DNA from: Eledone cirrhosa
Taxonomy: Eukaryota
Direction: 5' to 3'
DNA length: 64,000 bases
Assembly: GCA_964016885.1 (NCBI GenBank)
Contig: OZ024742.1
Location: 370,388,001-370,452,000 of the forward strand
Every line of letters begins with the position of its first letter. The first letter of the stretch is position 1. A program made the position numbers and the translations under genes. The notes beneath the pieces are model-generated. The model made no database searches, was not told where the DNA came from, and worked only from the letters and a program-made list of their open reading frames with translations. Positions 1-46,571 of this stretch are shown in pieces.

Positions 1-3000
1 AGTGTGGACTGGGTGCCTTTTGTCATGGCACCAGAACGACTACTTTACAGTGTGGACTGGGTGCCTTTTGTCATGGCACCAAAACGACCACTTTACAGTG
101 TGGACTAGGTGCCTTTTGTCATGGCACCAAAACGACCACTTTACAGTGTGGACTGGGTGCCTTTTGTCATGACACCAAAACGACCACTTTACAGTGTGGA
201 CTGGGTGCCTTTTGTCATGACACCAAAACGACCACTTTACAGTGTGGACTGGGTGCCTTTTGTCATGGCACCAAAACGACCACTTTACAGTGTGGACTGG
301 GTGCCTTTTGTCATGGCACCAAAACGACCACTTTACAGTGTGGACTGGGTGCCTTTTGTCATGGCACCAGAACGACCACTTCACAGTGTGGACTGGGTGC
401 CTTTTGTCATGGCACCAAAACGTCCACTTTACAGTGTGGACTGGGTGCCTTTTGTCATGACACCAAAACGACCACTTTACAGTGTGGACTGGGTGCCTTT
501 TGTCATGACACCAAAACGGCCACTTTACAGTGTGGACTGGGTGCCTTTTGTCATGGCACCAAAACGACCACGTTACAGTGTGGGCTGGGTGCCTTTTGTC
601 ATGGCACCAAAACGACCACTTTACAGTGTGGACTGGGTGCCTTTTGTCATGGCACCAAAACGACCACTTTACAGTGTGGACTGGGTGCCTTTTGTCATGA
701 CACCAAAACAAACACTTTACAGTGTGGACTGGGTGCCTTTTGTCATGGCACCAAAACGACCACTTTACAGTGTGGAGTGGGTGCCTTTTGTCATGGCACC
801 AAAACGACCACTTAACAGTGTGGACTTAGTGCCTTTTGTCGTGAAACCAAAACGACCACTTTACAGTGTGGACTGGGTGCCTTTTGTCATGGCACCAAAA
901 CGACCACTTTACAGTGTGGACTGGGTGCCTTTTGACATGACACCAAATCGACCACTTTACAGTGTGGACTGGGTGCCTTTTGACATGACACCAAAACGAC
1001 CACTTTACAGTGTGGACTGGGTGCTTTTTGACATGACACCAAAACGACCACTTTACAGTGTGGACTGTGTGCCTTTTGTCATGACACCAAAACGACCACT
1101 TTACACTATGGACTGTGTGCCTTTTGTCATGACACCAAAACGACCACTTTACACTATGGACTGTGTGCCTTTTGTCATGACACCAAAACGACCACTTTAC
1201 ACTATGGACTGGGTGCCTTTTGTCATGGCACCAAAACGACCACTTTACAGTGTGGACTGGGTGCCTTTTGTCATGGCACCAAAACGACCACTTTACAGTA
1301 TGGACTGGGTGCCTTTTGTCATGACACCAAAACGAACACATTACAGTGTGGACTGGGTGCCTTTTGTCATGGCACCAAAACGACCACTTTACAGTGTGGA
1401 CTGGGTGCCTTTTGTCATGGCACCAAAACGACCACTTTACAGTGTGGACTGGGTGCCTTTTGTCATGGCACCAAAACGAACACTTTATAGTGTGGACTGC
1501 GTGCCTTTTGTCATGGCACCAAAACGACTACTTTACAGTGTGGACTGGGTGCCTTTTGTCATGGCACCAAAACGACCACTTTACAGTGTGGACTGGGTGC
1601 CTTTTGTCATGGCACCAAAACGACCACTTTACAGTGTGGACTGGGTGCCTTTTGACATGACACCAAAACGACCACTTTACAGTGTGGACTGGGTGCCTTT
1701 TGACATGACACCAAAACGACCACTTTACAGTGTGGACTGGGTACCTTTTGACATGACACCAAAACGACCACTTTACAGTGTGGACTGGGTGCCTTTTGTC
1801 ATGACACCAAAACGACCACTTTACACTATGGACTGTGTGCCTTTTGTCATGACACCAAAACGACCACTTTACACTATGGACTGTGTGCCTTTTGTCATGA
1901 CACCAAAACGACCACTTTACACTATGGACTGGGTGCCTTTTGTCATGGCACCAAAACGACCACTTTACAGTGTGGACTGGGTGCCTTTTGTCATGGCACC
2001 AAATCGACCACTTTACAGTATGGACTGGGTGCCTTTTGTCATGACACCAAAACGAACACATTACAGTGTGGACAGGGTGCCTTTTGTCATGGCACCAAAA
2101 CGACCACTTTACAGTGTGGACTGGGTGCCTTTTGTCATGGCACCAAAACGACCACTTTACAGTGTGGACTGGGTGCCTTTTGTCATGGCACCAAAACGAA
2201 CACTTTATAGTGTGGACTGCGTGCCTTTTGTCATGGCACCAAAACGACTACATTACAGTGTGGACTGGGTGCCTTTTGTCATGGCACCAAAACGACCACT
2301 TTACAGTGTGGACTGGGTGCCTTTTGTCAATGTCACCTAAACGACCACTTTACAGTGTGGACTGGGTGCCTTTTGTCATGGCACCAAAACGGCTACTTTA
2401 CAGTGTGGTCTGTGTGCCTTTTGTCATGACACCAAAACGACTACTTTACAGTGTGGACTGGGTGTCTTTTGTCATGGCACCAAAACGACTACTTTACAGT
2501 GTGGTCTGTGTGCCTTTTGTCATGGCACCAAAACGACTACTTTACAGTGTGGACTGGGTGCCTTTTGTCATGGCACCAAAACGACCAATTTACAGTGTGG
2601 ACTGGGTGCCTTTTGTCATGGCACCAAAACGACCACTTTACAGTGTGGTCTGGGTGCCTTTTGTCATGGCACCAAAACGACACTTTACAGTGTGGACTGG
2701 GTACCGTTTGTCATGGCACCAAAACGACCACTTTACAGTGTGGACTGGGTACCGTTTGTCATGACACCAAAACGACCACTTTACAGTGTGGACTGGGTAC
2801 CGTTTGTCATGGCACCAAAACGACCACTTTACAGTGTGGACTGGGTGCCTTTTGTCATGGCACCAAAACGACCACTTTACAGTATGGACTGGGTGCCTTT
2901 TGTCATGACACCAAAACGAACACATTACAGTGTGGACTGGGTGCCTTTTGTCATGGCACCAAAACGACCACTTTACAGTGTGGACTGGGTGCCTTTTGTC

Positions 3001-6000
3001 ATGGCACCAAAACGACCACTTTACAGTGTGGACTGGGTGCCTTTTGTCATGGCACCAAAACGAACACTTTATAGTGTGGACTGCGTGCCTTTTGTCATGG
3101 CACCAAAACGACTACTTTACAGTGTGGACTGGGTGCCTTTTGTCATGGCACCAAAACGACCACTTTACAGTGTGGACTGGATGCCTTTTGTCAATGTCAC
3201 CTAAACGACCACTTTACAGTGTGGACTGGGTGCCTTTTGTCATGGCACCAAAACGACTACTTTACAGTGTGGTCTGTGTGCCTTTTGTCATGACACCAAA
3301 ACGACTACTTTACAGTGTGGACTGGGTGTCTTTTGTCATGGCACCAAAACGACTACTTTACAGTGTGGTCTGTGTGCCTTTTGTCATGGCACCAAAACGA
3401 CTACTTTACAGTGTGGACTGGGTGCCTTTTGTCATGGCACCAAAACGACCACTTTACAGTGTGGACTGGGTGCCTTTTGTCATGGCACCAAAACGACCTC
3501 TTTACAGTGTGGTCTGGGTGCCTTTTGTCATGGCACCAAAACGACACTTTACAGTGTGGACTGGGTACCGTTTGTCATGGCACCAAAACGACCACTTTAC
3601 AGTGTGGACTGGGTACCGTTTGTCATGACACCAAAACGACCACTTTACAGTGTGGACTGGGTACCGTTTGTCATGGCACCAAAACGACCACTTTACAGTG
3701 TGGACTGGGTGCCTTTTGTCATGGCACCAAAACGACCACTTTACAGTGTGGACTGGGTACCGTTTGTCATGGCACCAAAACGACCACTTTACAGTGTGGA
3801 CTGGGTGTCTTTTGTCATGGCACCAAAACGACTACTTTACAGTGTGGACTGGGTGCCTTTTGTCATGGCACCAAAACGACCACTTTACAGTGTGGACTGG
3901 GTGCCTTTTGTCATGGCACCAAAACGACCACTTTACAGTGTGGTCTGGGTGCCTTTTGTCATGGCACCAAAACGACACTTTACAGTGTGGACTGGGTACC
4001 GTTTGTCATGGCACCAAAACGACCACTTTACAGTGTGGACTGGGTACCGTTTGTCATGACACCAAAACGACCACTTTACAGTGTGGACTGGGTACCGTTT
4101 GTCATGGCACCAAAACGACCACTTTACAGTGTGGACTGGGTGCCTTTTGTCATGACACCGAAACGAACACATTACAGTGTGGACTGGGTGCCTTTTGTCA
4201 TGGCACCAAAACGACCACTTTACAGTGTGGACTGGGTGCCTTTTGTCATGGCACCAAAACGACCACTTTACAGTGTGGACTGGGTGCCTTTTGTCATGGC
4301 ACCAAAACGAACACTTTATAGTGTGGACTGCGTGCCTTTTGTCATGGCACCAAAACGACTACTTTACAGTGTGGACTGGGTGCCTTTTGTCATGGCACCA
4401 AAACGACCACTTTACAGTGTGGACTGGGTGCCTTTTGTCAATGTCACCTAAACGACCACTTTACAGTGTGGACTGGGTGCCTTTTGTCATGGCACCAAAA
4501 CGACTACTTTACAGTGTGGTCTGTGTGCCTTTTGTCATGACACCAAAACGACTACTTTACAGTGTGGACTGGGTGTCTTTTGTCATGGCACCAAAACGAC
4601 TACTTTACAGTGTGGTCTGTGTGCCTTTTGTCATGGCACCAAAACGACTACTTTACAGTGTGGACTGGGTGCCTTTTGTCATGGCACCAAAATGACCACT
4701 TTACAGTGTGGACTGGGTGCCTTTTGTCATGGCACCAAAACGACCACTTTACAGTGTGGTCTGGGTGCCTTTTGTCATGGCACCAAAACGACACTTTACA
4801 GTGTGGACTGGGTACCGTTTGTCATGGCACCAAAACGACCACTTTACAGTGTGGACTGGGTACCGTTTGTCATGACACCAAAACGACCACTTTACAGTGT
4901 GGACTGGGTACCGTTTGTCATGGCACCAAAACGACCACTTTACAGTGTGGACTGGGTGCCTTTTGTCATGGCACCAAAACGACCACTTTACAGTGTGGAC
5001 TGGGTACCGTTTGTCATGGCACCAATACGACCACTTTACAGTGTGGACTGGGTGCCTTTTGTCATGGCACCAAAACGACCTCTTTACAGTGTGGACTTAG
5101 TGCCTTTTGTCATGACACCAAAACGACCACTTTACAGTGTGGACTGGGTGCCTTTTGTCATGACACCAAAACGACCACTTTACAGTGTGGGCTGGGTGCC
5201 TTTTGTCAGGGCACAAAAACGACCACTTTACAGTGTGGACTGGGTGCCTTTTGACATGACACCAAAACGACCACTTTACAGTGTGGTCTGGGTGCCTTTT
5301 GTCATGGCACCAAAACGACCACTTTACACTATGGACTGTGTGCCTTTTGTCATGACACCAAAACGACCACTTTACACTATGGACTGGGTTCCTTTTGTCA
5401 TGGCACCAAAACGACCACTTTACAGTGTGGACTGGGTGCCTTTTGTCATGGCACCAAAACGACCACTTTACAGTATGGACTGGGTGCCTTTTGTCATGAC
5501 ACCAAAACGAACACATTACAGTGTGGACTGGGTGCCTTTTGTCATGGCACCAAAACGACTACTTTACAGTGTGGACTGGGTGCCTTTTGTCATGACACCA
5601 AAACGAACACATTACAGTGTGGACTGGGTGCCTTTTGTCATGGCACCAAAACGACCACTTTACAGTGTGGACTGGCTGCCTTTTGTCATGGCACCAAAAC
5701 GAACATATTACAGTGTGGACTGGGTGCCTTTTGTCATGGCACCAAAACGACCACTTTACAGTATGGACTGGGTGCCTTTTGTCATGACACCAAAACGAAC
5801 ACATTACAGTGTGGTCTGGGTGCCTTTTGTCATGGCACCAAAACGACCACTTTACAGTATGGACTGGGTGCCTTTTGTCATGACACCAAAACGAACACAT
5901 TACAGTGTGGACTGGGTGCCTTTTGTCATGGTACCAAAACGACCACTTTACAGTGTGGACTGGCTGCCTTTTGTCATGGCACCAAAACGACCACTTTACA

Positions 6001-9000
6001 GTATGGACTGGGCGCCTTTTGTCATGACACCAAAACGAACACTTTACAGTGTGGACTGGGTGCCTTTTGTCATGGCACCAAAACGACCACTTTACAGTGT
6101 GGACTGGGTGCCTTTTGTCATGGCACCAAAACGACTACTTTACAGTGTGGTCTGTGTGCCTTTTGTCATGACACCAAAACGACTAATTTACAGTGTGGTC
6201 TGTGTGCCTTTTGTCATGACACCAAAACGACTACTTTACAGTGTGGACTGGGTGCCTTTTGTCATGGCACCAAAACGACTACTTTACAGTGTGGACTGGG
6301 TGCCTTTTGTCATGGCACCAAAACGACCACTTTACAGTGTGGACTGGGTGCCTTTTGTCATGGCACCAAAACGACCACTTTACAGTGTGGACTGGGTGCC
6401 TTTTGTCATGGCACCAAAACGACCACTTTACAGTGTGGACTGGGTACCGTTTGTCATGGCACCAAAACGACCACTTTACAGTGTGGACTGGGTGCCTTTT
6501 GTCATGGCACCAAATCGACCACTTTACAGTGTGGACTGGGTGCCTTTTGTAATGGCACCAAAACGACCACTTTACAGTGTGGACTGGGTGCCTTTTGTCA
6601 TGGCACCAAAACGACCACTTTACAGTGTGGACTGGGTACCGTTTATCATGGCACCAAAACGACCACTTTACAGTGTGGACTGGGTACCGTTTGTCATGGC
6701 ACCAAAACGACCACTTTACAGTGTGGACTGGGTGCCTTTTGTCATGGCACCAAAACGACCACTTTACAGTGTGGACTGGGTGCCTTTTGTAATGGCACCA
6801 AAACGACTACTTTACAGTGTGGACTGGGTGCCTTTTGTCATGGCACCAAAACGACCACTTTACAATATGGACTGGGTGCCTTTTGTCATGACACCAAAAC
6901 GAACACATTACAGTGTGGACTGGGTGCCTTTTGTCATGGCACCAAAACGACCACTTTACAGTGTGGACTGGGTGCCTTTTGTCATGGCACCAAAACGACT
7001 ACTTTACAGTGTGGACTGGGTGCCTTTTGTCATGGCACCAAAACGACCACTTTACAGTGTGGTCTGGGTGCCTTTTGTCATGGCACCAAAACGACCACTT
7101 TACAGTGTGGACTGGGTGCCTTTTGTCATGGCACCAAAACGACTACTTTACAGTGTGGACTGGGTGCCTTTTGTCATGGCACCAAAACGACCACTTTACA
7201 GTGTGGACTGGGTGCCTTTTGTCATGGCACCAAAACGACTACTTTAGAGTGTGGTCTGTGTGCCTTTTGTCATGACACCAAAACGACTACTTTACAGTGT
7301 GGACTGGGTGCCTTTTGTCATGGCACCAAAACGACTACTTTACAGTGTGGTCTGTGTGCATTTTGTCATGGCACCAAAACGACTACTTTACAGTGTGTAC
7401 TGGGTGCCTTTTATCATGGCACCAAAACGACCACTTTACAGTGTGGACTGGGTGCCATATGTCATGGCACCACAACGGCCACTTTACAGTGTGGACTGGG
7501 TGCCGTTTGTCATGGCACCAAAACGACTACTTTACAATGTGGACTGGGTACCGTTTGTCATGGCACCTAAACGACCACTTTACAGTGTGGACTGGGTACC
7601 GTTTGTCATGACACCAAAACGACCACTTTACAGTGTGGACTGGGTACCGTTTGTCATGGCACCAAAACGACCACTTTACAGTGTGGACTGGGTGCCTTTT
7701 GTCATGGCACCAAAACGACCACTGTACAGTGTGGACTGGGTACCGTTTGTCATGGCACCAAAACGACCACTTTACAGTGTGGACTGGGTGCCTTTTGTCA
7801 TGGCACCAAATCGACCACTTTACAGTGTGGACTGGGTGCCTTTTGTAATGGCACCAAAACGACCACTTTACAGTGTGGACTGGGTGCCTTTTGTCATGGC
7901 ACCAAAACTACCACTTTACAGTGTGGACTGGGTACCTTTTGTCATGGCACCAAAACGACCACTTCACAGTGTGGACTGGGTGCCTTTTGTCATGGCACCA
8001 AAACGACCACTTTACAGTGTGGACTGGGTGCCTTTTGTAATGGCACCAAAACGACTACTTTACAGTGTGGACTGGGTACCGTTTGTCATGGCACCAAAAC
8101 GACCACTTTACAGTGTGGACTGGGTACCGTTTGTCATGACACCAAAACGACCACTTTACAGTGTGGACTGGGTACCGTTTGTCATGGCACCAAAACGACC
8201 ACTTTACAGTGTGGACTGGGTGGCTTTTGTCATGGCACCAAAACGACCACTTTACAGTGTGGACTGGGTGCCTTTTGTCATGGCACCAAAACGACCACTT
8301 TACAGTGTGGTCTGGGTGCCTTTGTCATGGCTACCAAAACGACCACTTTACAGTGTGGACTGGGTACCGTTTGTCATGGCACCAAAACGACCACTTTACA
8401 GTGTGGACTGGGTACCGTTTGTCATGACACCAAAACGACCACTTTACAGTGTGGACTGGGTACCGTTTGTCATGGCACCAAAACGACCACTTTACAGTGT
8501 GGACTGGGTGCCTTTCGTCATGGCACCAAAACGACCACTTTACAGTATGGACTGGGTGCCTTTTGTCATGACACCAAAACGAACACATTACAGTGTGGAC
8601 TGGGTGCCTTTTGTCATGGCACCAAAACGACTACTTTACAGTGTGGACTGGGTGCCTTTTGTCATGACACCAAAACGAACACATTACAGTGTGGACTGGG
8701 TGCCTTTTGTCATGGCACCAAAACGACCACTTTACAGTGTGGACTGGCTGCCTTTTGTCATGGCACCAAAACGAACATATTACAGTGTGGACTGGGTGCC
8801 TTTTGTCATGGCACCAAAACGACCACTTTACAGTATGGACTGGGTGCCTTTTGTCATGACACCAAAACGAACACATTACAGTGTGGACTGGGTGCCTTTT
8901 GTCATGGCACCAAAACGACCACTTTACAGTATGGACTGGGTGCCTTTTGTCATGACACCAAAACGAACACATTACAGTGTGGACTGGGTGCCTTTTGTCA

Positions 9001-12000
9001 TGGCACCAAAACGACCACTTTACAGTGTGGACTGGCTGCCTTTTGTCATGGCACCAAAACGACCACTTTACAGTATGGACTGGGCGCCTTTTGTCATGAC
9101 ACCAAAACGAACACTTTACAGTGTGGACTGGGTGCCTTTTGTCATGGCACCAAAACGACCACTTTACAGTGTGGACTGGGTGCCTTTTGTCATGGCACCA
9201 AAACGACTACTTTACAGTGTGGTCTGTGTGCCTTTTGTCATGACACCAAAACGACTACTTTACAGTGTGGTCTGTGTGCCTTTTGTCATGACACCAAAAC
9301 GACTACTTTACAGTGTGGACTGGGTGCCTTTTGTCATGGCACCAAAACGACTACTTTACAGTGTGGACTGGGTGCCTTTTGTCATGGCACCAAAACGACC
9401 ACTTTACAGTGTGGACTGGGTGCCTTTTGTCATGGCACCAAAACGACCAATTTACAGTGTGGACTGGGTGCCTTTTGTCATGGCACCAAAACGACCACTT
9501 TACAGTGTGGACTGGGTACCGTTTGTCATGGCACCAAAACGACCACTTTACAGTGTGGAGTGGGTGCCTTTTGTCATGGCACCAAATCGACCACTTTACA
9601 GTGTGGACTGGGTGCCTTTTGTAATGGCACCAAAACGACCACTTTACAGTGTGGACTGGGTGCCTTTTGTCATGGCACCAAAACGACCACTTTACAGTGT
9701 GGACTGGGTACCGTTTATCATGGCACCAAAACGACCACTTTACAGTGTGGACTGGGTACCGTTTGTCATGGCACCAAAACGACCACTTTACAGTGTGGAC
9801 TGGGTGCCTTTTGTCATGGCACCAAAACGACCACTTTACAGTGTGGACTGGGTGCCTTTTGTAATGGCACCAAAACGACTACTTTACAGTGTGGACTGGG
9901 TGCCTTTTGTCATGGCACCAAAACGACCACTTTACAGTATGGACTGGGTGCCTTTTGTCATGACACCAAAACGAACACATTACAGTGAGGACTGGGTGCC
10001 TTTTGTCATGGCACCAAAACGACCACTTTACAGTGTGGACTGGGTGCCTTTTGTCATGGCACCAAAACGACTACTTTACAGTGTGGACTGGGTGCCTTTT
10101 GTCATGGCACCAAAACGACCACTTTACAGTGTGGTCTGGGTGCCTTTTGTCATGGCACCAAAACGACCACTTTACAGTGTGGACTGGGTGCCTTTTGTCA
10201 TGGCACCAAAACGACAACTTTACAGTGTGGACTGGGTGCCTTTTGTCATGGCACCAAAACGACCACTTTACAGTGTGGACTGGGTGCCTTTTGTCATGGC
10301 ACCAAAACGACTACTTTAGAGTGTGGTCTGTGTGCCTTTTGTCATGACACCAAAACGACTACTTTACAGTGTGGACTGGGTGCCTTTTGTCATGGCACCA
10401 AAACGACTACTTTACAGTGTGGTCTGTGTGCCTTTTGTCATGGCACCAAAACGACTACTTTACAGTGTGGACTGGGTGCCTTTTATCATGGCACCAAAAC
10501 GACCACTTTACAGTGTGGACTGGGTGCCATATGTCATGGCACCACAACGGCCACTTTACAGTGTGGACTGGGTGCCGTTTGTCATGGCACCAAAACGACT
10601 ACTTTACAATGTGGACTGGGTACCGTTTGTCATGGTACCAAAACGACCACTTTACAGTGTGGACTGGGTACCGTTTGTCATGACACCAAAACGACCACTT
10701 TACAGTGTGGACTGGGTACCGTTTGTCATGGCACCAAAACGACCACTTTACAGTGTGGACTGGGTGCCTTTTGTCATGGCACCAAAACGACCACTGTACA
10801 GTGTGGACTGGGTACCGTTTGTCATGGCACCAAAACGACCACTTTACAGTGTGGACTGGGTGCCTTTTGTCATGGCACCAAATCGACCACTTTACAGTGT
10901 GGACTGGGAGCCTTTTGTAATGGCACCAAAACGACCACTTTACAGTGTGGACTGGGTGCCTTTTGTCATGGCACCAAAACTACCACTTTACAGTGTGGAC
11001 TGGGTACCGTTTGTCATGGCACCAAAACGACCACTTCACAGTGTGGACTGGGTGCCTTTTGTCATGGCACCAAAACGACCACTTTACAGTGTGGACTGGG
11101 TGCCTTTTGTAATGGCACCAAAACGACTACTTTACAGTGTGGACTGGGTACCGTTTGTCATGGCACCAAAACGACCACTTTACAGTGTGGACTGGGTACC
11201 GTTTGTCATGACACCAAAACGACCACTTTACAGTGTGGACTGGGTACCGTTTGTCATGGCACCAAAACGACCACTTTACAGTGTGGACTGGGTGCCTTTT
11301 GTCATGGCACCAAAACGACCACTTTACAGTGTGGACTGGGTGCCTTTTGTCATGACACCAAAACGACCACTTTACAGTGTGGTCTGGGTGCCTTTTGTCA
11401 TGGCTACCAAAACGACCACTTTACAGTGTGGACTGGGTACCGTTTGTCATGGCACCAAAACGACCACTTTACAGTGTGGACTGGGTACCGTTTGTCATGA
11501 CACCAAAACGACCACTTTACAGTGTGGACTGGGTACCGTTTGTCATGGCACCAAAACGACCACTTTACAGTGTGGACTGGGTGCCTTTTGTCATGGCACC
11601 AAAACGACCACTTTACAGTGTGGACTGGGTGCCTTTTGTCATGACACCAAAACGACCTCTTTACAGTGTGGTCTGGGTGCCTTTTGTTATGGCTACCAAA
11701 ACGACCACTTTACAGTGTGGACTGGGTACCGTTTGTCATGGCACCAAAACGACCACTTTACAGTGTGGACTGGGTACCGTTTGTCATGACACCAAAACGA
11801 CCACTTTACAGTGTGGACTGCGTACCGTTTGTCATGGCACCAAAACGACCACTTTACAGTGTGGACTGGGTGTCTTTTGTCATGGCACCAAAACGACTGC
11901 TTTACTGTGTGGTCTGTGTGCCTTTTGTCATGGCACCAAACGACTACTTTACAGTGTGGACTGGGTGCCTTTTGTCATGGCACCAAAACGACCACTTTAC

Positions 12001-15000
12001 AGTGTGGACTGGGTGCCTTTTGTCATGGCACCAAAACGACCACTTTACAGTGTGGACTGGGTGCCTTTTGTCATGGCACCAAAACGACACTTTACAGTGT
12101 GGACTGGGTACCGTTTGTCATGGCACCTAAACGACCACTTTACAGTGTGGACTGGGTACCGTTTGTCATGACACCAAAACGACCACTTTACAGTGTGGAC
12201 TGGGTACCGTTTGTCATGGCACCAAAACGACCACTTTACAGTGTGGACTGGGTGCCTTTTGTCATGGCACCAAAACGACCACTTTACAGTGTGGACTGGG
12301 TACCGTTTGTCATGGCACCAAAACGACCACTTTACAGTGTGGACTGTGTGCCTTTTGTCATGGCACCAAATCGACCACTTTACAGTGTGGACTGGGTGCC
12401 TTTTGTAATGGCACCAAAACGACCACTTTACAGTGTGGGCTGGGTGCCTTTTGTCATGGCACCAAAACGACCACTTTACAGTGTGGACTGGGTGCCTTTT
12501 GTCATGGCACCAAAACGACCACTTTACAGTGTGGACTGGGTGCCTTTTGTCATGACACCAAAACGACCACTTTACAGTGTGGACTGGGTGCCTTTTGTCA
12601 TGGCACCAAAACGACCACTTTACAGTGTGGACTGGGTGCCTTTTGACATGACACCAAAACGACCACTTTACAGTGTGGACTGGGTGCCTTTTGACATGAC
12701 ACCAAAACGACCACTTTACAGTGTGGACTGGGTGCCTTTTGTCATGACACCAAAACGACCACTTTAAACTATGGACTGTGTGCCTTTTGTCATGACACCA
12801 AAACGACCACTTTACACTATGGACTGGGTGCCTTTTGTCATGGCACCAAAACGACCACTTTACAGTGTGGACTGGGTGCCTTTTGTCATGGCACCAAAAC
12901 GACCACTTTACAGTATGGACTGGGTGCCTTTTGTCATGACACCAAAACGAACACATTACAGTGTGGACTGGGTGCCTTTTGTCATGGCACCAAAACGACT
13001 ACTTTACAGTGTGGACTGGGTGCCTTTTGTCATGACACCAAAACGAACACATTACAGTGTGGACTGGGTGCCTTTTGTCATGGCACCAATACGACCACTT
13101 TACAGTGTGGACTGGCTGCCTTTTGTCATGGCACCAAAACGAACACATTACAGTGTGGACTGGGTGCCTTTTGTCATGGCACCAAAACGACCACTTTACA
13201 GTATGGACTGGGTGCCTTTTGTCATGACACCAAAACGAACACATTACAGTGTGGACTGGGTGCCTTTTGTCATGGCACCAAAACGACCACTTTACAGTAT
13301 GGACTGGGTGCCTTTTGTCATGACACCAAAACGAACACATTACAGTGTGGGCTGGGTGCCTTTTGTCATGGCACCAAAACGACCACTTTACAGTGTGGAC
13401 TGGCTGCCTTTTGTCATGGCACCAAAACGACCACTTTACAGTATGGACTGGGTGCATTTTGTCATGACACCAAAACGAACACTTTACAGTGTGGACTGCG
13501 TGCCTTTTGTCATGGCACCAAAACGACCACTTTACAGTGTGGACTGGGTGCCTTTTGTCATGGCACCAAAACGACTACTTTACAGTGTGGTCTGTGTGCC
13601 TTTTGTCATGACACCAAAACGACTACTTTACAGTGTGGACTGGGTGCCTTTTGTCATGGCACCAAAACGACTACTTTACAGTGTGGCCTGTGTGCCTTTT
13701 GTCATGGCACCAAAACGACTACTTTACAGTGTGGACTGGGTGCCTTTTGTGATGGCACCAAAACGACCACTTTACAGTGTGGACTGGGTACCGTTTGTCA
13801 TGGCACCAAAACGACCACTTTACAGTGTGGACTGGGTGCCTTTTGTCATGGCACCAAAACGACCACTTTACAGTGTAGACTGGGTGCCTTTTGTAATGGC
13901 ACCAAAACGACCACTTTACAGTGTGGACTGGGTGCCTTTTGTCATGGCACCAAAACGACCACTTTACAGTGTGGACTGGGTACCGTTTGTCATGGCACCA
14001 AAACGACCACTTTACAGTGTGGACTGGGTGCCTTTTGTCATGGCACCAAAACGACCAATTTACAGTGTGGACTGGGTACCGTTTGTCCTGGCACCAAAAC
14101 GACCACTTTACACTATGGACTGTGTGCCTTTTGTCATGACACCAAAACGACCACTTTACACTATGGACTGAGTGCCTTTTGTCATGGCACCAAAACGACC
14201 ACTTTACAGTGTGGACTGGGTGCCTTTTGTCATGGCACCAAAATGACCACTTTACAGTATGGACTGGGTGCCTTTTGTCATGGCACCAAAACGACCACTT
14301 TACAGTGTGGGCTGGGTACCGTTTGTCATGGCACCAAAACGACCACTTTACAGTGTGGACTGGGTGCCTTTTGTCATGGCACCAAATCGACCACTTTACA
14401 GTGTGGACTGGGTGCCTTTTGTAATGGCACCAAAACGACCACTTTACAGTGTGGACTGGGTGCCTTTTGTCATGGCACCAAAACGACCACTTTACAGTGT
14501 GGACTGGGTACCGTTTGTCATGGCACCAAAACGACCACTTTACAGTGTGGACTGGGTGCCTTTTGTCATGGCACCAAAACGACCAATTTACAGTGTGGAC
14601 TGGGTACCGTTTGTCATGGCACCAAAACGACCACTTTACAGTGTGGACTGTGTGCCTTTTGTCATGGCACCAAATCGACCACTTTACAGTGTGGACTGGG
14701 TGCCTTTTGTAATGGCACCAAAACGACCACTTTACAGTGTGGACTGGGTGCCTTTTGTCATGGCACCAAAACGACCACTTTACAGTGTGGAATGGGTGCC
14801 TTTTGTCATGGCACCAAAACGACCACTTTACAGTGTGGACTGGGTGCCTTTTGTCATGGCACCAAAACGACCACTTTACAGTGTGGACTGGGTGCCTTTT
14901 GACATGACACCAAAACGACCACTTTACAGTGTGGACTGGGTGCCTTTTGACATGACACCAAAACGACCACTTTACAGTGTGGACTGGGTGCCTTTTGTCA

Positions 15001-18000
15001 TGATACCAAAACGACCACTTTACACTATGGACTGTGTGCCTTTTGTCATGACACCAAAACGACCACTTTACACTATGGACTGGGTGCCTTTTGTCATGGC
15101 ACCAAAACGACCACTTTACAGTGTGGAGTGGGTGCCTTTTGTCATGGCACCAAAACGACCACTTTACAGTATGGACTGGGTGCCTTTTGTCATGACACCA
15201 AAACGAACACATTACAGTGTGGACTGGGTGCCTTTTGTCATGGCACCAAAACGACTACTTTACAGTGTGGACTGGGTGCCTTTTGTCATGACACCAAAAC
15301 GAACACATTACAGTGTGGACTGGATGCCTTTTGTCATGGCACCAATACGACCACTTTACAGTGTGGACTGGCTGCCTTTTGTCATGGCACCAAAACGAAC
15401 ACATTACAGTGTGGACTGGGTGCCTTTTGTCATGGCACCAAAACGACCACTTTACAGTATGGACTGGGTGCCTTTTGTCATGACACCAAAACGAACACAT
15501 TACAGTGTGGACTGGGTGCCTTTTGTCATGGCACCAAAACGACCACTTTACAGTATGGACTGGGTGCCTTTTGTCATGACACCAAAACGAACACATTACA
15601 GTGTGGGCTGGGTGCCTTTTGTCATGGCACCAAAACGACCACTTTACAGTGTGGACTGGCTGCCTTTTGTCATGGCACCAAAACGACCACTTTACAGTAT
15701 GGACTGGGTGCCTTTTGTCATGACACCAAAACGAACACTTTACAGTGTGGACTGCGTGCCTTTTGTCATGGCACCAAAACGACCACTTTACAGTGTGGAC
15801 TGGGTGCCTTTTGTCATGGCACCAAAACGACTACTTTACAGTGTGGCCTGTGTGCCTTTTGTCATGGCACCAAAACGACTACTTTACAGTGTGGACTGGG
15901 TGCCTTTTGTGATGGCACCAAAACGACCACTTTACAGTGTGGACTGGGTAACGTTTGTCATGGCACCAAAACGACCACTTTACAGTGTGGACTGGGTGCC
16001 TTTTGTCATGGCACCAAAACGACCACTTTACAGTGTGGACTGGGTACCGTTTGTCATGGCACCAAAACGACCACTTTACAGTGTGGACTGGGTGCCTTTT
16101 GTCATGGCACCAAATCGACCACTTTACAGTGTAGACTGGGTGCCTTTTGTAATGGCACCAAAACGACCACTTTACAGTGTGGACTGGGTGCCTTTTGTCA
16201 TGGCACCAAAACGACCACTTTACAGTGTGGACTGGGTACCGTTTGTCATGGCACCAAAACTACCACTTTACAGTGTGGACTGGGTGCCTTTTGTCATGGC
16301 ACCAAAACGACCAATTTACAGTGTGGACTGGGTACCGTTTGTCCTGGCACCAAAACGACCACTTTACACTATGGACTGTGTGCCTTTTGTCATGACACCA
16401 AAACGACCACTTTACACTATGGACTGAGTGCCTTTTGTCATGGCACCAAAACGACCACTTTACAGTGTGGACTGGGTGCCTTTTGTCATGACACCAAAAC
16501 GAACACATTACAGTGTGGACTGGGTGCCTTTTGTCATGGCACCAAAACGACCACTTTACAGTGTGGACTGGGTGCCTTTTGTCATGGCACCAAAACGACT
16601 ACTTTACAGTGTGGACTGGGTGCCTTTTGTCATGGCACCAAAACGACCACTTTACAGTGTGGTCTGGGTGCCTTTTGTCATGGCACCAAAAGGACCACTT
16701 TACAGTGTGGACTGGGTGCCTTTTGTCATGGCACCAAAACGACTACTTTACAGTGTGGACTGGGTGCCTTTTGTCATGGCACCAAAACGACCACTTTACA
16801 GTGTGGACTGGGTGCCTTTTGTCATGGCACCAAAACGACTACTTTACAGTGTGGTCTGTGTGCCTTTTGTCATGACACCAAAACGATTACTTTACAGTGT
16901 GGACTGGGTGCCTTTTGTCATGGCACCAAAACGACTACTTTACAGTGTGGTCTGTGTGCCTTTTGTCATGGCACCAAAACGACTACTTTACAGTGTGGAC
17001 TGGGTGCCTTTTGTCATGGCACCAAAACGACCACTTTACAGTGTGGACTGGGTGCCTTTTGTCATGGCACCACAACGACCACTTTACAGTGTGGACTGGG
17101 TGCCTTTTGTCATGGCACCAAAACGACCACTTTACAGTGTGGACTGGGTACCGTTTGTCATGGCACCAAAACGACCACTTTACAGTGTGGACTGGGTACC
17201 GTTTGTCATGACACCAAAACGACCACTTTACAGTGTGGACTGGGTACCGTTTGTCATGGCACCAAAACGACCACTTTACAGTGTGGACTGGGTGCCTTTT
17301 GTCATGGCACCAAAACGACCACTGTACAGTGTGGACTGGGTACCGTTTGTCATGGCACCAAAACGACCACTTTACAGTGTGGACTGGGTGCCTTTTGTCA
17401 TGGCACCAAATCGACCACTTTACAGTGTGGACTGGGTGCCTTTTGTAATGGCACCAAAACGACCACTTTACAGTGTGGACTGGGTACCGTTTGTCATGGC
17501 ACCAAAACGACCACTTTACAGTGTGGACTGGGTGCCTTTTGTCATGGCACCAAAACGACCACTTTACAGTGTGGACTGGGTGCCTTTTGTCATGACACCA
17601 AAACGACCACTTTACAGTGTGGTCTGGGTGTTTTTTGTCATGGCTACCAAAACGACCACTTTACAGTGTGGACTGGGTACCGTTTGTCATGGCACCAAAA
17701 CGACCACTTTACAGTGTGGACTGGGTACCGTTTGTCATGACACCAAAACGACCACTTTACAGTGTGGACTGGGTACCGTTTGTCATGGCACCAAAATGAC
17801 CACTTTACAGTTTGGACTGGGTGCCTTTTGTCATGGCACCAAAACGACCACTTTACAGTGTGGACTGGGTGCCTTTTGTCATGACACCAAAACGACCACT
17901 TTACAGTGTGGTCTGGGTGCCTTTTGTTATGGCTACCAAAACGACCACTTTACAGTGTGGACTGGGTACCGTTTGTCATGGCACCAAAACGACCACTTTA

Positions 18001-20665
18001 CAGTGTGGACTGGGTACCGTTTGTCATGACACCAAAACGACCACTTTACAGTGTGGACTGCGTACCGTTTGTCATGGCACCAAAACGACCACTTTACAGT
18101 GTGGACTGGGTGCCTTTTGTCATGGCACCAAAACGACCACTTTACAGTGTGGACTGGGTGCCTTTTGTCACGACACCAAAACGACCACTTTACAGTGTGG
18201 TCTGGGTGCCTTTTGTCATGGCTACCAAAACGACCACTTTACAGTGTGGACTGGGTACCGTTTGTCATGGCACCAAAACGACCACTTTACAGTGTGGACT
18301 GGTTGCCTTTTGTCATGGCACCAAAACGACCACTTTACAGTGTGGTCTGTGTGCCTTTTGTCATGGCACCAAAAGGACCACTTTACAGTGTGGACTGGGT
18401 GCCTTTTGTCATGGCACCAAAACGACTACTTTACAGTGTGGACTGGGTGCCTTTTGTCATGGCACCAAAACGACCACTTTACAGTGTGGACTGGGTGCCT
18501 TTTGTCATGGCACCAAAACGACTACTTTACAGTGTGGTCTGTGTGCCTTTTGTCATGACACCAAAACGACTACTTTACAGTGTGGACTGGGTGCCTTTTG
18601 TCATGGCACCAAAACGACTACTTTACAGTGTGGTCTGTGTGCCTTTTGTCATGGCACCAAAACGACTACTTTACAGTGTGGACTGGGTGCCTTTTGTCAT
18701 GGCACCAAAACGAGCACTTTACAGTGTGGACTGGGTACCGTTTGTCATGGCACCAAAACGACCACTTTACAGTGTGGACTGGGTACCGTTTGTCATGACA
18801 CCAAAACGACCACTTTACAGTGTGGACTGGGTACCGTTTGTCATGGCACCAAAACGACCACTTTACAGTGTGGACTGGGTGCCTTTTGTCATGGCACCAA
18901 ATCGACCACTTTACAGTGTGGACTGGGTGCCTTTTGTAATGGCACCAAAACGACCACTTTACAGTGTGGACTGGGTACCTTTTGTCATGGCACCAAAACG
19001 ACCACTTTACAGTGTGGACTGGGTACCGTTTGTCATGGCACCAAAACGACCACTTTACAGTGTGGACTGGGTGCCTTTTGTCATGGCACCAAAACGACCA
19101 CTTTACAGTGTGGACTGGGTGCCTTTTGTAATGGCACCAAAACGACCACTTTACAGTGTGGACTGGGTGCCTTTTGTCATGGCACCAAATCGACCACTTT
19201 ACAGTGTGGACTGGGTGCCTTTTGTAATGGCACCAAAACGACCACTTTACAGTGTGGACTGGGTGCCTTTTGTCATGGCACCAAAACGACCACTTTACAG
19301 TGTGGACTGGGTACCGTTTGTCATGGCACCAAAACGACCACTTTACAGTGTGGACTGGGTGCCTTTTGTCATGGCACCAAAACGACTACTTTACAGTGTG
19401 GACTCGGTGCCTTTTGTCATGACACCAAAACGACCACTTTACAGTGTGGTCTGGGTGTTTTTTGTCATGGATACCAAAACGACCACTTTACAGTGTGGAC
19501 TGGGTACCGTTTGTCATGGCACCAAAACGACCACTTTACAGTGTGGACTGGGTACCGTTTGTCATGACACCAAAACGACCACTTTACAGTGTGGACTGGG
19601 TACCGTTTGTCATGGCACCAAAATGACCACTTTACAGTTTGGACTGGGTGCCTTTTGTCATGGCACCAAAACGACCACTTTACAGTGTGGACTGGGTGCC
19701 TTTTGTCATGACACCAAAACGACCACTTTACAGTGTGGTCTGGGTGCCTTTTGTTATGGCTACCAAAACGACCACTTTACAGTGTGGACTGGGTACCGTT
19801 TGTCATGGCACCAAAACGACCACTTTACAGTGTGGACTGGGTACCGTTTGTCATGACACCAAAACGACCACATTACAGTGTGGACTGCGTACCGTTTGTC
19901 ATGGCACCAAAACGACCACTTTACAGTGTGGACTGGGTGCCTTTTGTCATGGCACCAAAACGACCACTTTACAGTGTGGACTGGGTGCCTTTTGTCATGA
20001 CACCAAAACGACCACTTTACAGTGTGGTCTGGGTGCCTTTTGTCATGGCTACCAACACGACCACTTTACAGTGTGGACTGGGTACCGTTTGTCATGGCAC
20101 CAAAACGACCACTTTACAGTGTGGACTGGGTACCGTTTGTCATGGCACCAAAACGACCACTTTACAGTGTGCACTGGGTGCCTTTTGTCATGGCACCAAA
20201 ACGACCACTTTACAGTGTGGACTGGGTGCCTTTTGTCATGGCACCAAAACGACCACTTTACAGTGTGGACTGGGTACCGTTTGTCATGACACCAAAACGA
20301 CCACTTTACAGTGTGGACTGGGTACCGTTTGTCATGGCACCAAAACGACCACTTTACAGTGTGGACTGGGTACCGTTTGTCATGGCACCAAAACGACCAC
20401 TTTACAGTGTGGACTGGGTGCCTTTTGTCATGACACCAAAACGACCACTTTACAGTGTGGTCTGGGTGCCTTTTGTCATGGCTACCAAAACGACCACTTT
20501 ACAGTGTGGACTGGGTGCCTTTTGTCATGACACCAAAACGACCACTTTACAGTGTGGACTGGGTGCCTTTTGTCATGGCACCAAAACGACCACTTTACAG
20601 TGTGGTCTGGGTGCCTTTTGTCATGGCACCAAAACGACCACTTTACACTGTGGACTGGGTACTTT
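1..20665. repeat. 48-bp satellite array (~430 monomers), consensus AGTGTGGACTGGGTGCCTTTTGTCATGGCACCAAAACGACCACTTTAC; runs off the left edge
   Basis: 48-bp period is visible directly. Recurring variant monomers define duplications of 720, 864, 1827, 2256 and 3072 bp, seen as offsets between matching ORF-track entries. Confidence 0.98.
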
Positions 20666-20721
20666 GGTAGTGTCATTAGAACATTGCATAGAATGTTTTT
20701 TCTTATTCATTCTGTCTCTCT

Positions 20722-21774: not shown

Positions 21775-23250
21775 GAAAGCCAGAAATGTTAGAATAAAGA
21801 AAGACCTGGGCAGAGGTGGTGAGAGATCATCTTAAATCGGTGAGTCTCACAAAGAAGATGGCAAAGAAACACGGCAAGTGGAGAGATGCTACGCTGAGAA
21901 AGACTCACCCAGTTTCTCCTTCAGTTCATTCAAGCTCTGCCTTTCTCTCACATTTACTTGGCACATCTAAGCATGGCTGCTTCATTTCTCTCCAGTCTAA
22001 GCATATCTTCTGCAGCCACATCCCATGCTTCACTACCATGTAGCACCACATGCCTTCTGCAGCCACATCCCATGCTTCACTACCATGTAGCACCACATGT
22101 CTTCTGCAGCCACATCCCATGCTTCACTACCATGTAGCACCACATGTCTTCTGCAGCCACATCCCATGTTTCACTACCATGTAGCACCACATGTCTTCTG
22201 CAGCCACATCCCATGCTTCACTACCATGTAGCACCACATGTCTTCTGCAGCCACATCCCATGTTTCACTAACATGTAGCATCACATGTCTTCTGCAGCCA
22301 CATCCCATGTTTCACTAACATGCAGCATCACACTTCACACGCAGGTGTCATACAGTCATCCTTTTGTATGTAGGGAGAAACCTTTTGTTGTCAACAGTGG
22401 GAGTAGCTCCCTAAACTTCTTCCATCCTATCCTTATTCTAGCTATTATACTTTCAGAGCACCCTCTTCCGCTGCTAATTAAGTCACCTAGATAGCAGAAG
22501 CTATCAACCAGTTCTATTGACCCTTCATATGACTTGAAGAGGTTTCCCTCAATTACTCCTACATATCTACATACAAAGTCTTCCTTTCCTGTTAGTCTAC
22601 CTGTTATCCCACTACATCTCTTGTGTAACCAAGATTTACATTGTGTATACTAAATGGAGTTTATGCCTACTCTTTTTCTACATATAGAGCAGGACCAGTT
22701 CCCTGCGGGAATCTGGGTCTTCTTTCCTAATCACTAGCACTTTAATTTTGACTAAATTTACTCTCAGTCCTTTTGATTCCAAATTCCATTTCCATAGTCG
22801 GAACTTATTTTCTAGTTTGTTTATGGATTCTGATATAAGAACCAAATCATCTACATCGAGAAAATTCCATGGGCAGCCAGTCTTAAAGTCCTCTGTTATG
22901 GCCTGAAGAACTCTGATGAAAAGCAGTGGACTAAGAACTGAACCTTTATGAACTCCTACCTGTACCTTGAATTCTTCCCTAAAGTCATTTCCTACTCTCA
23001 TCTCACTTTACTGACAGCTCCTCTGTACATAGCTTGCACTGCTCTCACAAGCCATTCTTCTACACCTAATTTCCTTAAGGACCACCAGATAAGGGATCGA
23101 GGTACTCTGCCATTGGCCTTTTCTAAATCAACAAAAACTAAATATAGTGGCTTATTTTGGGCTTGGAACTTCTCCTGTAGGTGCCTCACTAAGACGAGGA
23201 CATCTGTAGAGCTTTTCCTCGGCATGAAACCAAACTGCATCTCATCTAAT
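21775..23250 (-). mobile_element. Rearranged RTE-clade LINE fragment: RT region on the minus strand (23250-21910), ORF C-terminus inverted on the plus strand (~21775-21910)
   Basis: Minus-strand translations MQFGFMPRKSSTD, LVFVDLEKA, GVHKGSVLSPLLF, DVDDLVLI, HGSEAW; plus-strand KTWAEVVRDHLK...KWRDATLRKTHP. Homologous to 33134-35023. Confidence 0.9.
22006..22330. repeat. 47-bp minisatellite (~7 copies) inside the RTE fragment
   Basis: Unit TCTTCTGCAGCCACATCCCATGCTTCACTACCATGTAGCACCACATG; its reverse complement encodes the RTE motif VLHGSEAW. Confidence 0.92.
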
Positions 23251-23371
23251 TTGACTCTTTTCCTAATTATGTATCAATGGACTCCAGTATTGATCTGCTC
23301 ATCAGACATGGTGATTAGGATAAAAGAAATTCACTTTTCAAGGCATCCTACCTCTTATCGATATATATATC

Positions 23372-23541
23372 TGAAGGGGCATGGCTCAGTGGTTAGAGCA
23401 TTGGCCTTGCAATCGAAAGGTTGTGAGTTCAATTCTCAGACCGGGTGATGTGTTGTTTCCTTGAGCAAGACACTTTATTTCACATTGCTCCAGTTTACTC
23501 AGCTGCAGAAATGAGATGATAGGACTGGGGTCCCTATCATT
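23372..23541 (+). mobile_element. tRNA-derived SINE with CORE-like domain, 3'-truncated
   Basis: A-box TGGCTCAGTGG, B-box-like GTTCAATTC, CORE-like CCTTGAGCAAGACACTTTA. Closely similar copy at 48308. Confidence 0.8.
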
Positions 23542-23817
23542 CTACTGCAAAGTGGTCGTGGAGGTGCCACGGCAAAAAAGCACCCAGCCCTCACTGTAAA
23601 GTGGATGTGGAGGTGCCACGGAAAAAAAAAGCACCCCGCACTCACTGTAAATTAGGTTGGTGTTAGGAAGGGCATCCAGCTGTAGAAATCAAGCCAGAAT
23701 CAGTTCCTGTATGAGCAAGACAAGGTCAGCCGACCGGACACTGCCCACATCAGGACAACCCGTCTAACCCATGCTAAGCGTGGAAGAACGGACGTAAAAC
23801 AGTGATGATGATGATGA

Positions 23818-23820
<3 letters not shown>
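23542..23820 (+). mobile_element. RTE LINE 3' UTR and (GAT)n tail
   Basis: Highly similar to 35055-35335, including both hairpin repeats; followed by (TA)n. Confidence 0.9.
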
Positions 23821-25773: not shown

Positions 25774-26380
25774 TTATGGAGGGTAAGTATCTGAAAGTGA
25801 GTTAAGTTTATATGAGCTGGAAAGTAAGTGTGATTCCATGTGTGGGCAACTGGTGAAAATTTCTGTTTTTGTATTTAGGCAGGTTTTGGGTGATTTAAGG
25901 TTCTGTAAAATCCAATATTTTTTACTTATGCAGAGTGTGCATCTTCTTGTTCCTCTTGAATATTCTTTAGATGGGTTCAAAATTGACCAATCCAATTTAT
26001 ATTGGATACCTTGGTCTTTCAAATCCCATATTCTGCTAGCCAGAGCTGTTGTGAATCTTTTTTCTGGATGTCGGAAAGATGCGACTTGTCAGTAATAACG
26101 CGTTTTGAATTTGTCTTGTATCATACCCACATATCGTTCGCTGGTGGCTGGTTGGTTGTTGCTGATGGTTGTCACTTTAGCCGCATATACAATGGCTTTG
26201 GTGTTGCATTTACCTTGTAATGGGCATTCACTTTTGACTCTACAGGAGCAATTTTGATGTTCTCTGGGTGATTTCTTATTGATGATATAAGATTTAATAG
26301 GGGGACCGCAGGAATAGCTAATTTTGACACAGTTTCTATTGAAGATTTTATAGTATCTATGTGTTCTAGGGAAATGTTTG
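25774..26380 (-). pseudogene. Penelope-like ORF remnant: zinc-finger linker plus GIY-YIG endonuclease
   Basis: ORFs 26089..26463 and 25774..26022 are in frame and separated by one TGA. Confidence 0.85.
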
Positions 26381-26729
26381 TGTGTGTTTATACGCGTGCT
26401 TTCATACTCGTATGTGTATTTAATACCTGTATCTGGATGCGTGTTAACTATATTATCATACAATTTCTTTTTTCAACTCATATTATATACGTAAATGTGG
26501 TCACATACACAAATATACTTTCCCTCATATATGTACTTACGCACACATTTTCACCATACACATGCATTTGTACATACACACATATGTACATTTGTCAGTG
26601 TATATACATACATATACACATACCCTAACTATATTTCCTTATATTTTTTTATATATCTCTTGCATTACTTTTATTTATATATTTTTTGCATTTCTTGAGG
26701 AGAGTTTCCAAATATTTCACTATGTTTTA

Positions 26730-30053: not shown

Positions 30054-30295
30054 CATCATCGTTATACATCCATTCTTCCACGCTAGCATGGGTTAGACGA
30101 GTTGTCCTGTTGTGGGCAATGCTAGGTCAGGTGACCATACCTTGCTCATACAGAACTGATTTTGGCTTGGTTCCTACAGCTGGATGCCCTTCCTAATGCC
30201 AACTACTTCACAGAGAGTACTGGGTACTTTTTGCTGTGACACCTACATGACCACTTTACAGTGTGTATTGGGTGGTTTTTGCTGTGACACCTACA
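30054..30295 (-). mobile_element. RTE 3' UTR/tail copy, antisense
   Basis: Reverse complement of 35055-35330; contains GACCACTTTACAGTGTG, as in the 48-bp satellite. Confidence 0.85.
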
Positions 30296-30519
30296 GTATA
30301 ATAATAGTCAAATTATTGTGTAAAGTGCTCAGGTGCACTACAAGTGCTGGGTGCTTTTGTCATATAAATATCTGCATATATACTGTAGTATAAACATGGT
30401 AGAAATATCCAAGTGTAAGAGTACTCAGTCCATAGGATGAGTTAAATATAATTAGTAACGACAGTGACATAAACAGGTACTTACAATTCGTTGAGTTATA
30501 CACCCCAACTCAGCCTGTT

Positions 30520-32181: not shown

Positions 32182-32183
<2 letters not shown>

Positions 32184-35100: not shown

Positions 35101-35330
35101 CCCACACTGTAAAGTGGACGTGTAGGCGCCACGGAAAAAGCACCCAGCACTCACTGTAAATGAGGTTGGTGTTAGGAAGGGCATCCAGCTGTAGAAATCA
35201 AGCCAAAATCAGTTCCTGTATGAGCAAGGCATGGTCAGCCGACCAGACACTGCCCACAACAGGACAACCCGTCTAACCCATGCTAGCATGGAAGAACGGA
35301 CGTAAAACGGTGATGATGATGATGATGATG

Positions 35331-35536: not shown

Positions 35537-36941
<1,405 letters not shown>

Positions 36942-36957
36942 CATATATATAAATATA

Positions 36958-38292
36958 CTAACACACAGACACACACACTTGCGTTGGTTCGAGAGGGAAG
37001 GTATGTGTTGGCGATGTTAATGAAGTTAATGGTTGTTGAGGTATGGGGTCGTGCCTTGTGGTGGCGGTGGTGGAGATATGAGCGACAAAAATATACAGGA
37101 TCGAATAATACGATGGGTTACAGGTTAAAAGGTGACAAAGACGACCTCCACTACGTTTAAGGAGCGCTGGTATAACCATAGAAGCTACTTTAAACATAGG
37201 CTGAAACGATCCCAAACCAGACTGGCCGATTTGATCTGGGACCTCAAGGACAGGAACATCGAATCCCAGATCACGTGGGCAGGCAAAGACGCGTGGCGCA
37301 ACTCCCCAGTGACAGAAACCACTGCAGGTTATGCCTGGCCGAGGCGGCAGAAATAATTAAATTAAAATCTGCCATAAACTATAGGTCGGACATAATTATC
37401 AATTGCAGACACACCAGGCTGAACACATTTTCTGCACAAACATTCGGGGAGGGCTGCACACTAACCATGATCCAACATAATAATAACCACCTCTTCCCCG
37501 TCTCACCATGCCTCATCTCAGTGAATTTATTTTATTTTATTGCATGTAACCATTTGTAAGCCCGTATTTTGTATATCATGCCGCACACATCACCCCCACC
37601 AAAAATCACATCGCCATACACCCCTCATCTTTGCAACATTGGGTTCTATATGTCCCCTCTGTCAGGTTTTACCTTGTAATCCCTGGTAACACCTGATCCT
37701 GTGAATATTATGTCGACCATATCACCACCACCATCACCGCACACATCGTTATATGTCTCCCATCCCACACCCGCAACCTTATTCCCCCATGTTCCCTCTG
37801 TCTACCCTAACCTACAACCCCACGCAAAATTCGATCCTGTAAATGTACTGTCGCACACACCACCACCGCCACCACTAGATACATCCACATACTTCAACAA
37901 TCATTAACATCATTAACATCATCAACACATATCATCCCTCACTCCCAGAACGACTGTGTTATATCTGCCCTCTCTGTCTGCTTTACCCTCTAACCCACTG
38001 TCACATCTGATCATCTAAATATATTGTTGAACATATCACCCCATCACCACCACCACCACCACCATGACCACACACATCGCCATACGTCCACAAACTTTTT
38101 TCCCCCGTGTTCCCTATGTCACATTTTAACCTGTAACCCATCGTATTATTCGATCCTGTATATTTTTGTCGCTCACAACACCACCACCGTCACCACAAGG
38201 CACAACTCCATCAACAACCATTAACTTCATTAACATCGCTAACACATACCTTCCCTCTCGAACCAACGCAAGTGTGTGTGTCTGTGTGTAAG
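36958..38292 (+). mobile_element. Penelope-like element remnant: GIY-YIG C-terminus with an inverted terminal copy (36958-37130 vs 38125-38292)
   Basis: TFKERWYNHRSYFKH, LADLIWDLKD, CRLCLAEA; ~170-bp inverted repeat; (TA)n flanks. Confidence 0.8.
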
Positions 38293-46370: not shown

Positions 46371-46571
46371 AACATTCTGTTATCTGGTGGTTGTTAAAAA
46401 AGCTAGATATAGATGAATGCTTTCTAAGCACCATGTAATCCATATACAGAGATTTAGCAGTGAATTCAGTCAGGAATTTTAACCATTTTGAAACCAAACT
46501 GGTTCTACTATACAAAGCTGTTTGTTTTAAAATGTTTATATGTATCTAAAAATATTCCATTGCAATTTTAT

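Follow-up and report, generated by a model that had tools for sequence, protein, structure and literature searches.

A 54.6-kb satellite array of Eledone cirrhosa traced to a tandem repeat in the 3' untranslated region of a LINE

The 64,000-nucleotide stretch of the Eledone cirrhosa genome analysed here (assembly GCA_964016885.1, contig OZ024742.1, positions 370,388,001 to 370,452,000; hereafter the window) opens inside a long tandem array of a 48-bp unit. Where does such an array come from, and does it do anything? An initial annotation of the window had derived it from a hairpin-forming two-copy module in the 3' untranslated region (UTR) of an RTE-type long interspersed nuclear element (LINE), and had proposed that its transcripts could serve as antisense RNA or as a protein decoy. 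We confirm that the satellite was correctly traced to a LINE tail; the interpretation as a whole is partly supported. In our reading, to which we assign a probability of roughly 0.8, the array is a satellite with a 48-bp unit that corresponds to the tandem repeat of a LINE 3' UTR; slippage and unequal exchange likely enlarged it where a single minus-strand insertion had landed, and it likely has no function of its own.

Tandem Repeats Finder (TRF) delimits the array within the window to 1-20660 (period 48, 430.3 copies, 94% matches), with the LINE-sense strand being the minus strand. Mapping of the left flank placed its start 33,979 bp to the left of the window (G000:C3:370354021, 34 kb outside it), and the window holds the right 38% of the whole. 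The complete array measures 54,645 bp and contains 1,136 anchors, which approximate units, with 1,001 spacings of exactly 48 bp. The commonest 48-mer in its phase, with 81 exact copies within the window, is the monomer originally described, and 455 distinct monomers occur in the array. Identity to the modal unit depends on position, being 0.87-0.90 over the 12 kb beside the tail and rising to 0.94-0.97 from about 14 kb inward. Two stretches, of 10,051 bp and 1,335 bp, are duplicated exactly inside the array. The copies of the longer one are offset by 10,600, and the in-window part of its second copy occupies 1-6864. This duplication reflects either a very recent unequal exchange or a duplication in the assembly, and because both stretches are exact, up to about 12 kb of the 54.6-kb array could either be of very recent origin or have been duplicated in the assembly. 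A coding role was considered and rejected: the open plus-strand frames, which extend up to 1,023 codons, are explained by the lack of stops in the 16-codon unit alone.

The relationship to a LINE tail is visible within the window. In a global alignment the monomer matches positions 35055-35104 at 40 of 48 aligned positions with a 2-base gap, in agreement with the earlier count by eye. Aligned with the 29 kb of the window outside the array, a trimer of the monomer reached a score of 106, versus 23.7 +/- 2.3 (maximum 34) for 200 shuffled monomers, so that the match also withstands the shuffled control that had been suggested for it. The four other sites named before (23542, 43185 and 46572 on the plus strand, 30200-30290 on the minus strand) all match with scores of 70-89, and a further site, previously unmentioned, lies near 49600 on the minus strand (score 71). 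The match at 35055 belongs to a 5'-truncated young LINE on the plus strand (32182-35330), which comprises an endonuclease fragment, a reverse transcriptase (RT; RVT_1, E 2e-30), a PHD-like finger, a 3' UTR with two units (35055-35160), a conserved tail core and a (TGA)n end. Its homologues have single open reading frames (ORFs) of about 1,040-1,100 amino acids with endonuclease and RT domains (PF03372 and PF00078), and none of those found bears the name RTE. A single ORF with APE endonuclease and RT, a microsatellite end and 5'-truncated copies make up an RTE-type architecture, and on this ground, together with a general resemblance, the donor family is putatively placed in the RTE clade. The same two-unit module (TRF 23544-23651) and tail are found at 23370-23820 (plus strand) behind a tRNA-like head (Rfam tRNA match at 23382-23439, 29.3 bits, cut-off 29). 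The tail of the LINE is therefore shared by a short interspersed nuclear element (SINE).

At the left edge of the array, about 55 bp of the antisense tail core, representing its inner part, directly adjoin the first unit in register and orientation (L014:5975-6035; score 63 versus a null maximum of 24). An antisense tail ending in (CAT)n had been predicted at this boundary. Its inner part is present as expected, but the distal (CAT)n end was not found at the left edge (score 13 versus a null maximum of 22), and the nearest end of this type, about 410 bp farther out, is part of a different minus-strand LINE fragment. At L014:5510-5975 the tail core of the array is joined directly to the coding part of a 5'-truncated minus-strand LINE, which belongs to another family and whose 3' UTR is very short; by eye, this family also occurs at 22300-22440 and 47360-47690 of the window. 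The join may have arisen by deletion or template switch. At the right end, a partial and divergent last unit (20639-20680, minus strand) likely marks where the seeding LINE copy, truncated at its 5' end, starts, given its resemblance by eye to the upstream units of dispersed copies. Beyond this end, no LINE ORF was detected (ORF score 26 versus a null maximum of 33).

Dispersed copies of the element place the unit within it. Of the 30 best tail loci, 26 have ORF sequence directly upstream, and unit and core are both absent from the upstream region that 19 of 19 long copies in the young family share. The 48-bp unit is genuine 3' UTR sequence, located between stop codon and tail. Its number ranges from 0 to 18 in 29 loci selected by the junction and from 0 to 41 or more in 20 loci selected by motif (found with a 26-mer). 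Hence the UTR module is a variable-number repeat with no fixed pair, and the two-copy module of the initial annotation has to be abandoned. Donor-type units reach 92% (junction-selected) and 96% (motif-selected) identity to the monomer, versus 82% and 71% for the two units of the young LINE. Since the junction-selected copies are 86% alike pairwise, as compared to 98% for the young ones, the donor was likely an older subfamily with a variable unit number, rather than the two-unit element at 35055 from which the array had been derived. The exact 26-mer of the unit occurs 371 times in the genome and 302 of these copies are in the array of the window; one large array thus arose from this variant of the unit. 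The tail core, by comparison, was counted through an exact 26-mer at 73,270 sites; at least 73,000 tails are a pool of array seeds. At two loci (L052:1173-1560 and L054:1172-1560) a young SINE stands directly upstream of an older tail copy with TA repeats between them, an adjacency that may reflect an insertion preference.

The window's array is not unique but belongs to a family of expansions that occurred separately across the genome. Using an 18-unit run of another locus as query, we scored 39 of 2,959 candidates, of which at least 27 loci proved to have some 17 units or more. We measured 27 arrays in 24 regions, which represent 22 of the 26 other loci, the locus L089 and the window. As regards a centromeric satellite, for which megabase arrays on all chromosomes and CENP-A occupancy would be expected, these arrays are 1-67 kb in length and interstitial; that of the window lies 8.5 Mb from the contig end. 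Downstream of the repeats, the core was scored in 21 arrays and the tail end in 21, an ORF precedes the repeats in three, and three arrays keep both ORF and tail around them. The clearest case is an array of 1,373 units and 66 kb (G000:C3:226016000-226082000, L154-L161), in which ORF end, UTR start, units, core, tail end and (TGA)n follow one another: here the whole satellite is contained in the 3' UTR of one LINE. Because this array sits between the end of a LINE ORF and its tail, the direction from LINE to satellite is fixed. Together with the tail remnant at the edge of the window's array, it upholds the proposed origin from a LINE 3' UTR module. A second array of similar size (1,400 units, 67 kb; G000:C28:94409800-94477000, L144-L152 region) retains its tail, and 5.5 kb from it lies a separate array of 136 units that keeps both ORF and tail (G000:C28:94482500-94489100). 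In a scan of the opposite strand, a 120-unit array (L125, G000:C10:54394000-54400000) was found to be broken at regular steps of 1,632 bp, which suggests a higher-order repeat.

The 27 arrays have 23 different modal monomers. Units are more alike within arrays (identity 0.92) than between them (0.85), the identity within exceeds the best identity between in 16 of 21 arrays, and 210 array pairs revealed neither in-register sharing nor a common order of variants. Since units resemble each other most within arrays and no variant order is shared, the arrays most likely grew separately, after insertion. The window's array has the hallmarks of a satellite derived from a transposable element (TE): a long head-to-tail array, TE homology beyond chance, a direction from TE to satellite and concerted evolution.

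From these data we infer the following course of events. An older RTE-type subfamily would have carried a small number of 48-bp units immediately ahead of the conserved tail core, and a copy 5'-truncated inside these units would have inserted here on the minus strand. Slippage and unequal exchange may then have amplified and homogenised one unit variant, first near the tail, where units are 87-90% like the mode, and later farther off, where they are 94-97% like it. Block duplications of kilobase size probably accompanied the later amplification, and either a deletion or a junction with another LINE fragment would have removed the distal tail. Of the at least 73,000 tails that could act as seeds, a few would reach 50-70 kb in this way. 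While the order of these steps is a reconstruction, both the identity gradient and the exact block duplications support it, and mechanisms of this type are those reviewed for TE-derived tandem repeats in the available passages of PMC6947457. The region itself tolerates large arrays, because a 36-bp array of more than 100 kb starts 29 kb away.

Several observations weigh against growth in place from a single LINE insertion. No target-site duplication could be defined at the array, which leaves the single insertion a deduction. An upstream ORF is missing from 24 of the 27 arrays, the window's included, and 6 of the 27 scored no core, although for at least one of these (L089) the script missed a core that is present. 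In 5 of 21 arrays the best identity to another array exceeds that within the array, and thus some exchange between loci is possible. The searches for the donor subfamily select for likeness to the array, so that the identities obtained are inflated. Cores of motif-selected loci are no nearer to the remnant at the left edge (0.83, n=8) than are young cores (0.86, n=18), with junction-selected cores at 0.91 (n=29). This selection and the motif-selected cores make the assignment to a particular donor tentative.

Function is the subject of the rival that survives best. Transcribed from the plus strand, the array would yield a multimeric antisense RNA, or feed double-stranded RNA (dsRNA) or Piwi-interacting RNA (piRNA) pathways, and so help to silence LINEs and SINEs with the shared tail. 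We consider this unlikely. The plus strand is indeed antisense to the tail, and it contains no AATAAA over 54.6 kb, which would permit read-through by RNA polymerase II. Furthermore, exact 21-mer matches to the array exist for 16 of 29 older terminal units, and RTE and SINE fragments are transcribed in the octopus brain according to the passages of PMC9115989 consulted. The young family, being 97.7% identical pairwise, is the likelier active one, yet it is matched poorly: the array contains exact matches to only 5 of 91 21-mers and to 0 of 86 26-mers from its module, and to none of its 18 terminal units (mismatched pairing aside), and complementarity of guide length to the young element appears to be lacking. 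Runs of four T, an established terminator of RNA polymerase III, occur in the majority of units on each strand (942 and 971), and this polymerase would therefore stop within the array. No host-gene exon exceeded the Pfam cut-off in the 191 of 257 flank ORFs scanned (small exons can be missed, and the 66 left out are mostly repeat- or LINE-derived), and accordingly no read-through unit was identified; RT alone passed the cut-off, with three weak matches below it (zf-C2H2, DUF1180 and PHD_2). Moreover, the tail-core 26-mer already exists at 36,031 plus-strand and 37,239 minus-strand sites, and the measured arrays point both ways as well (15 plus, 12 minus). 'Antisense' is simply the orientation of the seeding insertion relative to the assembly strand, and the word is without meaning until a transcript is shown. 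Among the papers listed in a literature search for precedents of satellite-derived antisense RNA or piRNA, there were general piRNA papers only. A broader version, in which the LINE tail would be a mobile satellite seed, with its 48-bp repeat planted by tens of thousands of insertions, and the resulting arrays, from kilobase size up to 70 kb and facing both ways, would jointly constitute a dispersed dsRNA or piRNA source that silences the dominant LINE/SINE family, is improbable to the same degree. If it were true, a parasite would have bred its own repressor, and such a regulatory role, although unsupported, would be of far greater interest.

It is very unlikely that the direction was the reverse, with an older satellite coming first and its unit being captured by a LINE. 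In favour of a capture, the unit must have had some origin, for in 10 of 10 metagenome loci of other organisms (L163-L172, by eye) the core stands without the 48-bp unit and with no RT nearby. We conclude from these loci that the core is older than the unit, which was a later addition to the tail. Against a capture, the unit begins with the same bases as the core, and the last partial unit continues straight into the unique tail, as would be expected of an internal duplication. Besides, arrays end on tails at unrelated loci, one of them lies between ORF and tail over 66 kb, and arrays are more homogeneous (0.92) than dispersed older copies (0.86).

Even less probable is a minus-strand transcript acting as a multimeric decoy that sequesters the LINE protein. 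Satellite monomer and dimer do fold better than shuffles (z -2.95 and -3.40), and a helix of six pairs is kept through one two-sided change in some subfamily units (4 of 67 rows). The opposite strand folds equally well (z -3.48), however, and for the two units of the young LINE no advantage over shuffles is apparent (z -0.49 and +0.57); the term hairpin in the description of the module is not supported either. Among 67 units, covariation did not exceed that of shuffles for either of two candidate structures (388 of 500 and 120 of 500 shuffles reached the observed value; with dead genomic copies this is a weak test), and the RNAalifold consensus energy was -2.2 kcal/mol. In addition, the repeated part differs from the terminal tail that LINE proteins are reported to recognise (PMC5786205, in the part available), and this terminal end is missing from the array. 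Taken together, neither of the two RNA roles first proposed, antisense or decoy, appears to be supported.

Just as improbable is that the array is largely an assembly product, or that long arrays spread ready-made as RNA copies: the exact duplicates of 10,051 bp and 1,335 bp and a left junction that no contig of four public read sets spans (short contigs cannot resolve repeats) would fit the former, but 455 distinct monomers and a smooth identity gradient are unlike a mis-assembly and the exact duplicates make up at most about 12 of 54.6 kb, and against the latter, the 210 pairs show neither in-register sharing nor a common variant order. In the same read sets, two of which are from one sample, possibly the assembled one, unit and core are present in contigs of a second organism.

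Satellites originating from retroelement 3' UTRs are known, and the array described here is a new and unusually replicated example of them. According to the passages of PMC9659126 consulted, established cases include PisTR-A (from Ogre), 18HT (HeT-A/TART), the common cetacean satellite (L1) and HinfI (CR1). The source of PisTR-A in pea is a set of tandem repeats that lie within the hypervariable 3' UTR of Ogre long terminal repeat (LTR) retrotransposons (Macas et al. 2009, as cited in PMC9659126), and there as here a variable tandem repeat of a retroelement 3' UTR was amplified and homogenised to long arrays. In Eledone cirrhosa, by contrast, the donor is a non-LTR LINE that shares its tail with a SINE in an animal host, the arrays grow in separate insertions, and one 66-kb array retains ORF and tail at its sides. 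The cetacean satellite (L1 3' end), Drosophila 18HT (HeT-A/TART 3' UTR) and chicken HinfI (CR1 3' UTR) likewise have a monomer from the 3' non-coding part of a LINE (PMC9659126 and PMC6947457, in the passages seen), but in our case a short tandem repeat of the unit pre-existed in the element, and it was expanded at many loci. The passages of these two papers contain no RTE example of a LINE-derived satellite, the term 'RTE' occurring 0 times in PMC6947457. Lepidopteran RTE elements generate microsatellite families (PMC2887409, in part), and hence RTE 3' ends seed dispersed tandem repeats there as well; there, however, a very short 3' UTR supplies simple repeats, as opposed to a 48-bp internal unit and arrays of 50-70 kb here.

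Among cephalopod elements, the Ceph-SINEs and the bipartite RTE-derived SINE bodies are also tRNA-headed SINEs that share sequence with RTE LINEs (PMC5786205, in the part available). RTE-2_OV of Octopus vulgaris has the same single-ORF architecture of endonuclease, RT and zinc finger, but its 3' UTR is described as mostly microsatellite in the passages of PMC9115989 seen. That the core is an RTE 5'-UTR or Ceph-SINE-domain sequence was not supported, since it is absent upstream in 19 of 19 long young copies and its motif gave 0 hits in the supplement of PMC5786205 (Kojima), where line breaks may hide one. The consulted passages of the cephalopod repeat papers PMC12988792 and PMC8967140 mention no satellites, and the family was not found described in the open literature, a scope that leaves out most subscription papers and repeat databases.

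The window holds further copies of the module. A second, internally deleted copy of the young LINE occupies 41300-43470 on the plus strand (module at 43186-43292). Sequence matches identify an isolated older tail copy with units at 30060-30300 (minus strand), an isolated tail copy of another subfamily with units at 46560-46830 (plus strand) and a degenerate tail copy with units at 49570-49810 (minus strand). The 36-bp satellite mentioned above begins at 49925, runs to the window end at 64000 and continues to at least G000:C3:370547900, exceeding 100 kb, with all listed matches at the same locus; an origin from the LINE was rejected (score 23 versus a shuffled mean of 19.9 and maximum of 29). 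At 22002-22332, a 47-bp repeat in seven copies lies in a minus-strand LINE fragment, and as it derives from the coding region by eye, ORF sequence seeds repeats too. Other arrays of kilobase size with periods of 20-84 bp occur up to 60 kb to the left of the array (L110, L109, L108, L016, L015) and around L089 (L101, L102), and large single-locus minisatellites look common in this genome. Three stretches (25774-26472, 37100-37450 and 38571-39450) resemble, by eye and with no Pfam hit, what we take to be the C-terminal RT/GIY-YIG parts of Penelope-like elements.

For the annotation of this genome, the finding means that such arrays are LINE 3' UTRs. The birth of satellites from transposons is otherwise mostly inferred afterwards from sequence likeness; here, one seed has produced, at dozens of unlinked insertions, a graded set of copies with 1 to 1,400 units, and ORF and tail still flank some of these insertions. 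The family is therefore a natural experiment, with replicates, on the causes that make a short repeat run away, be it the unit variant, the position or recombination.

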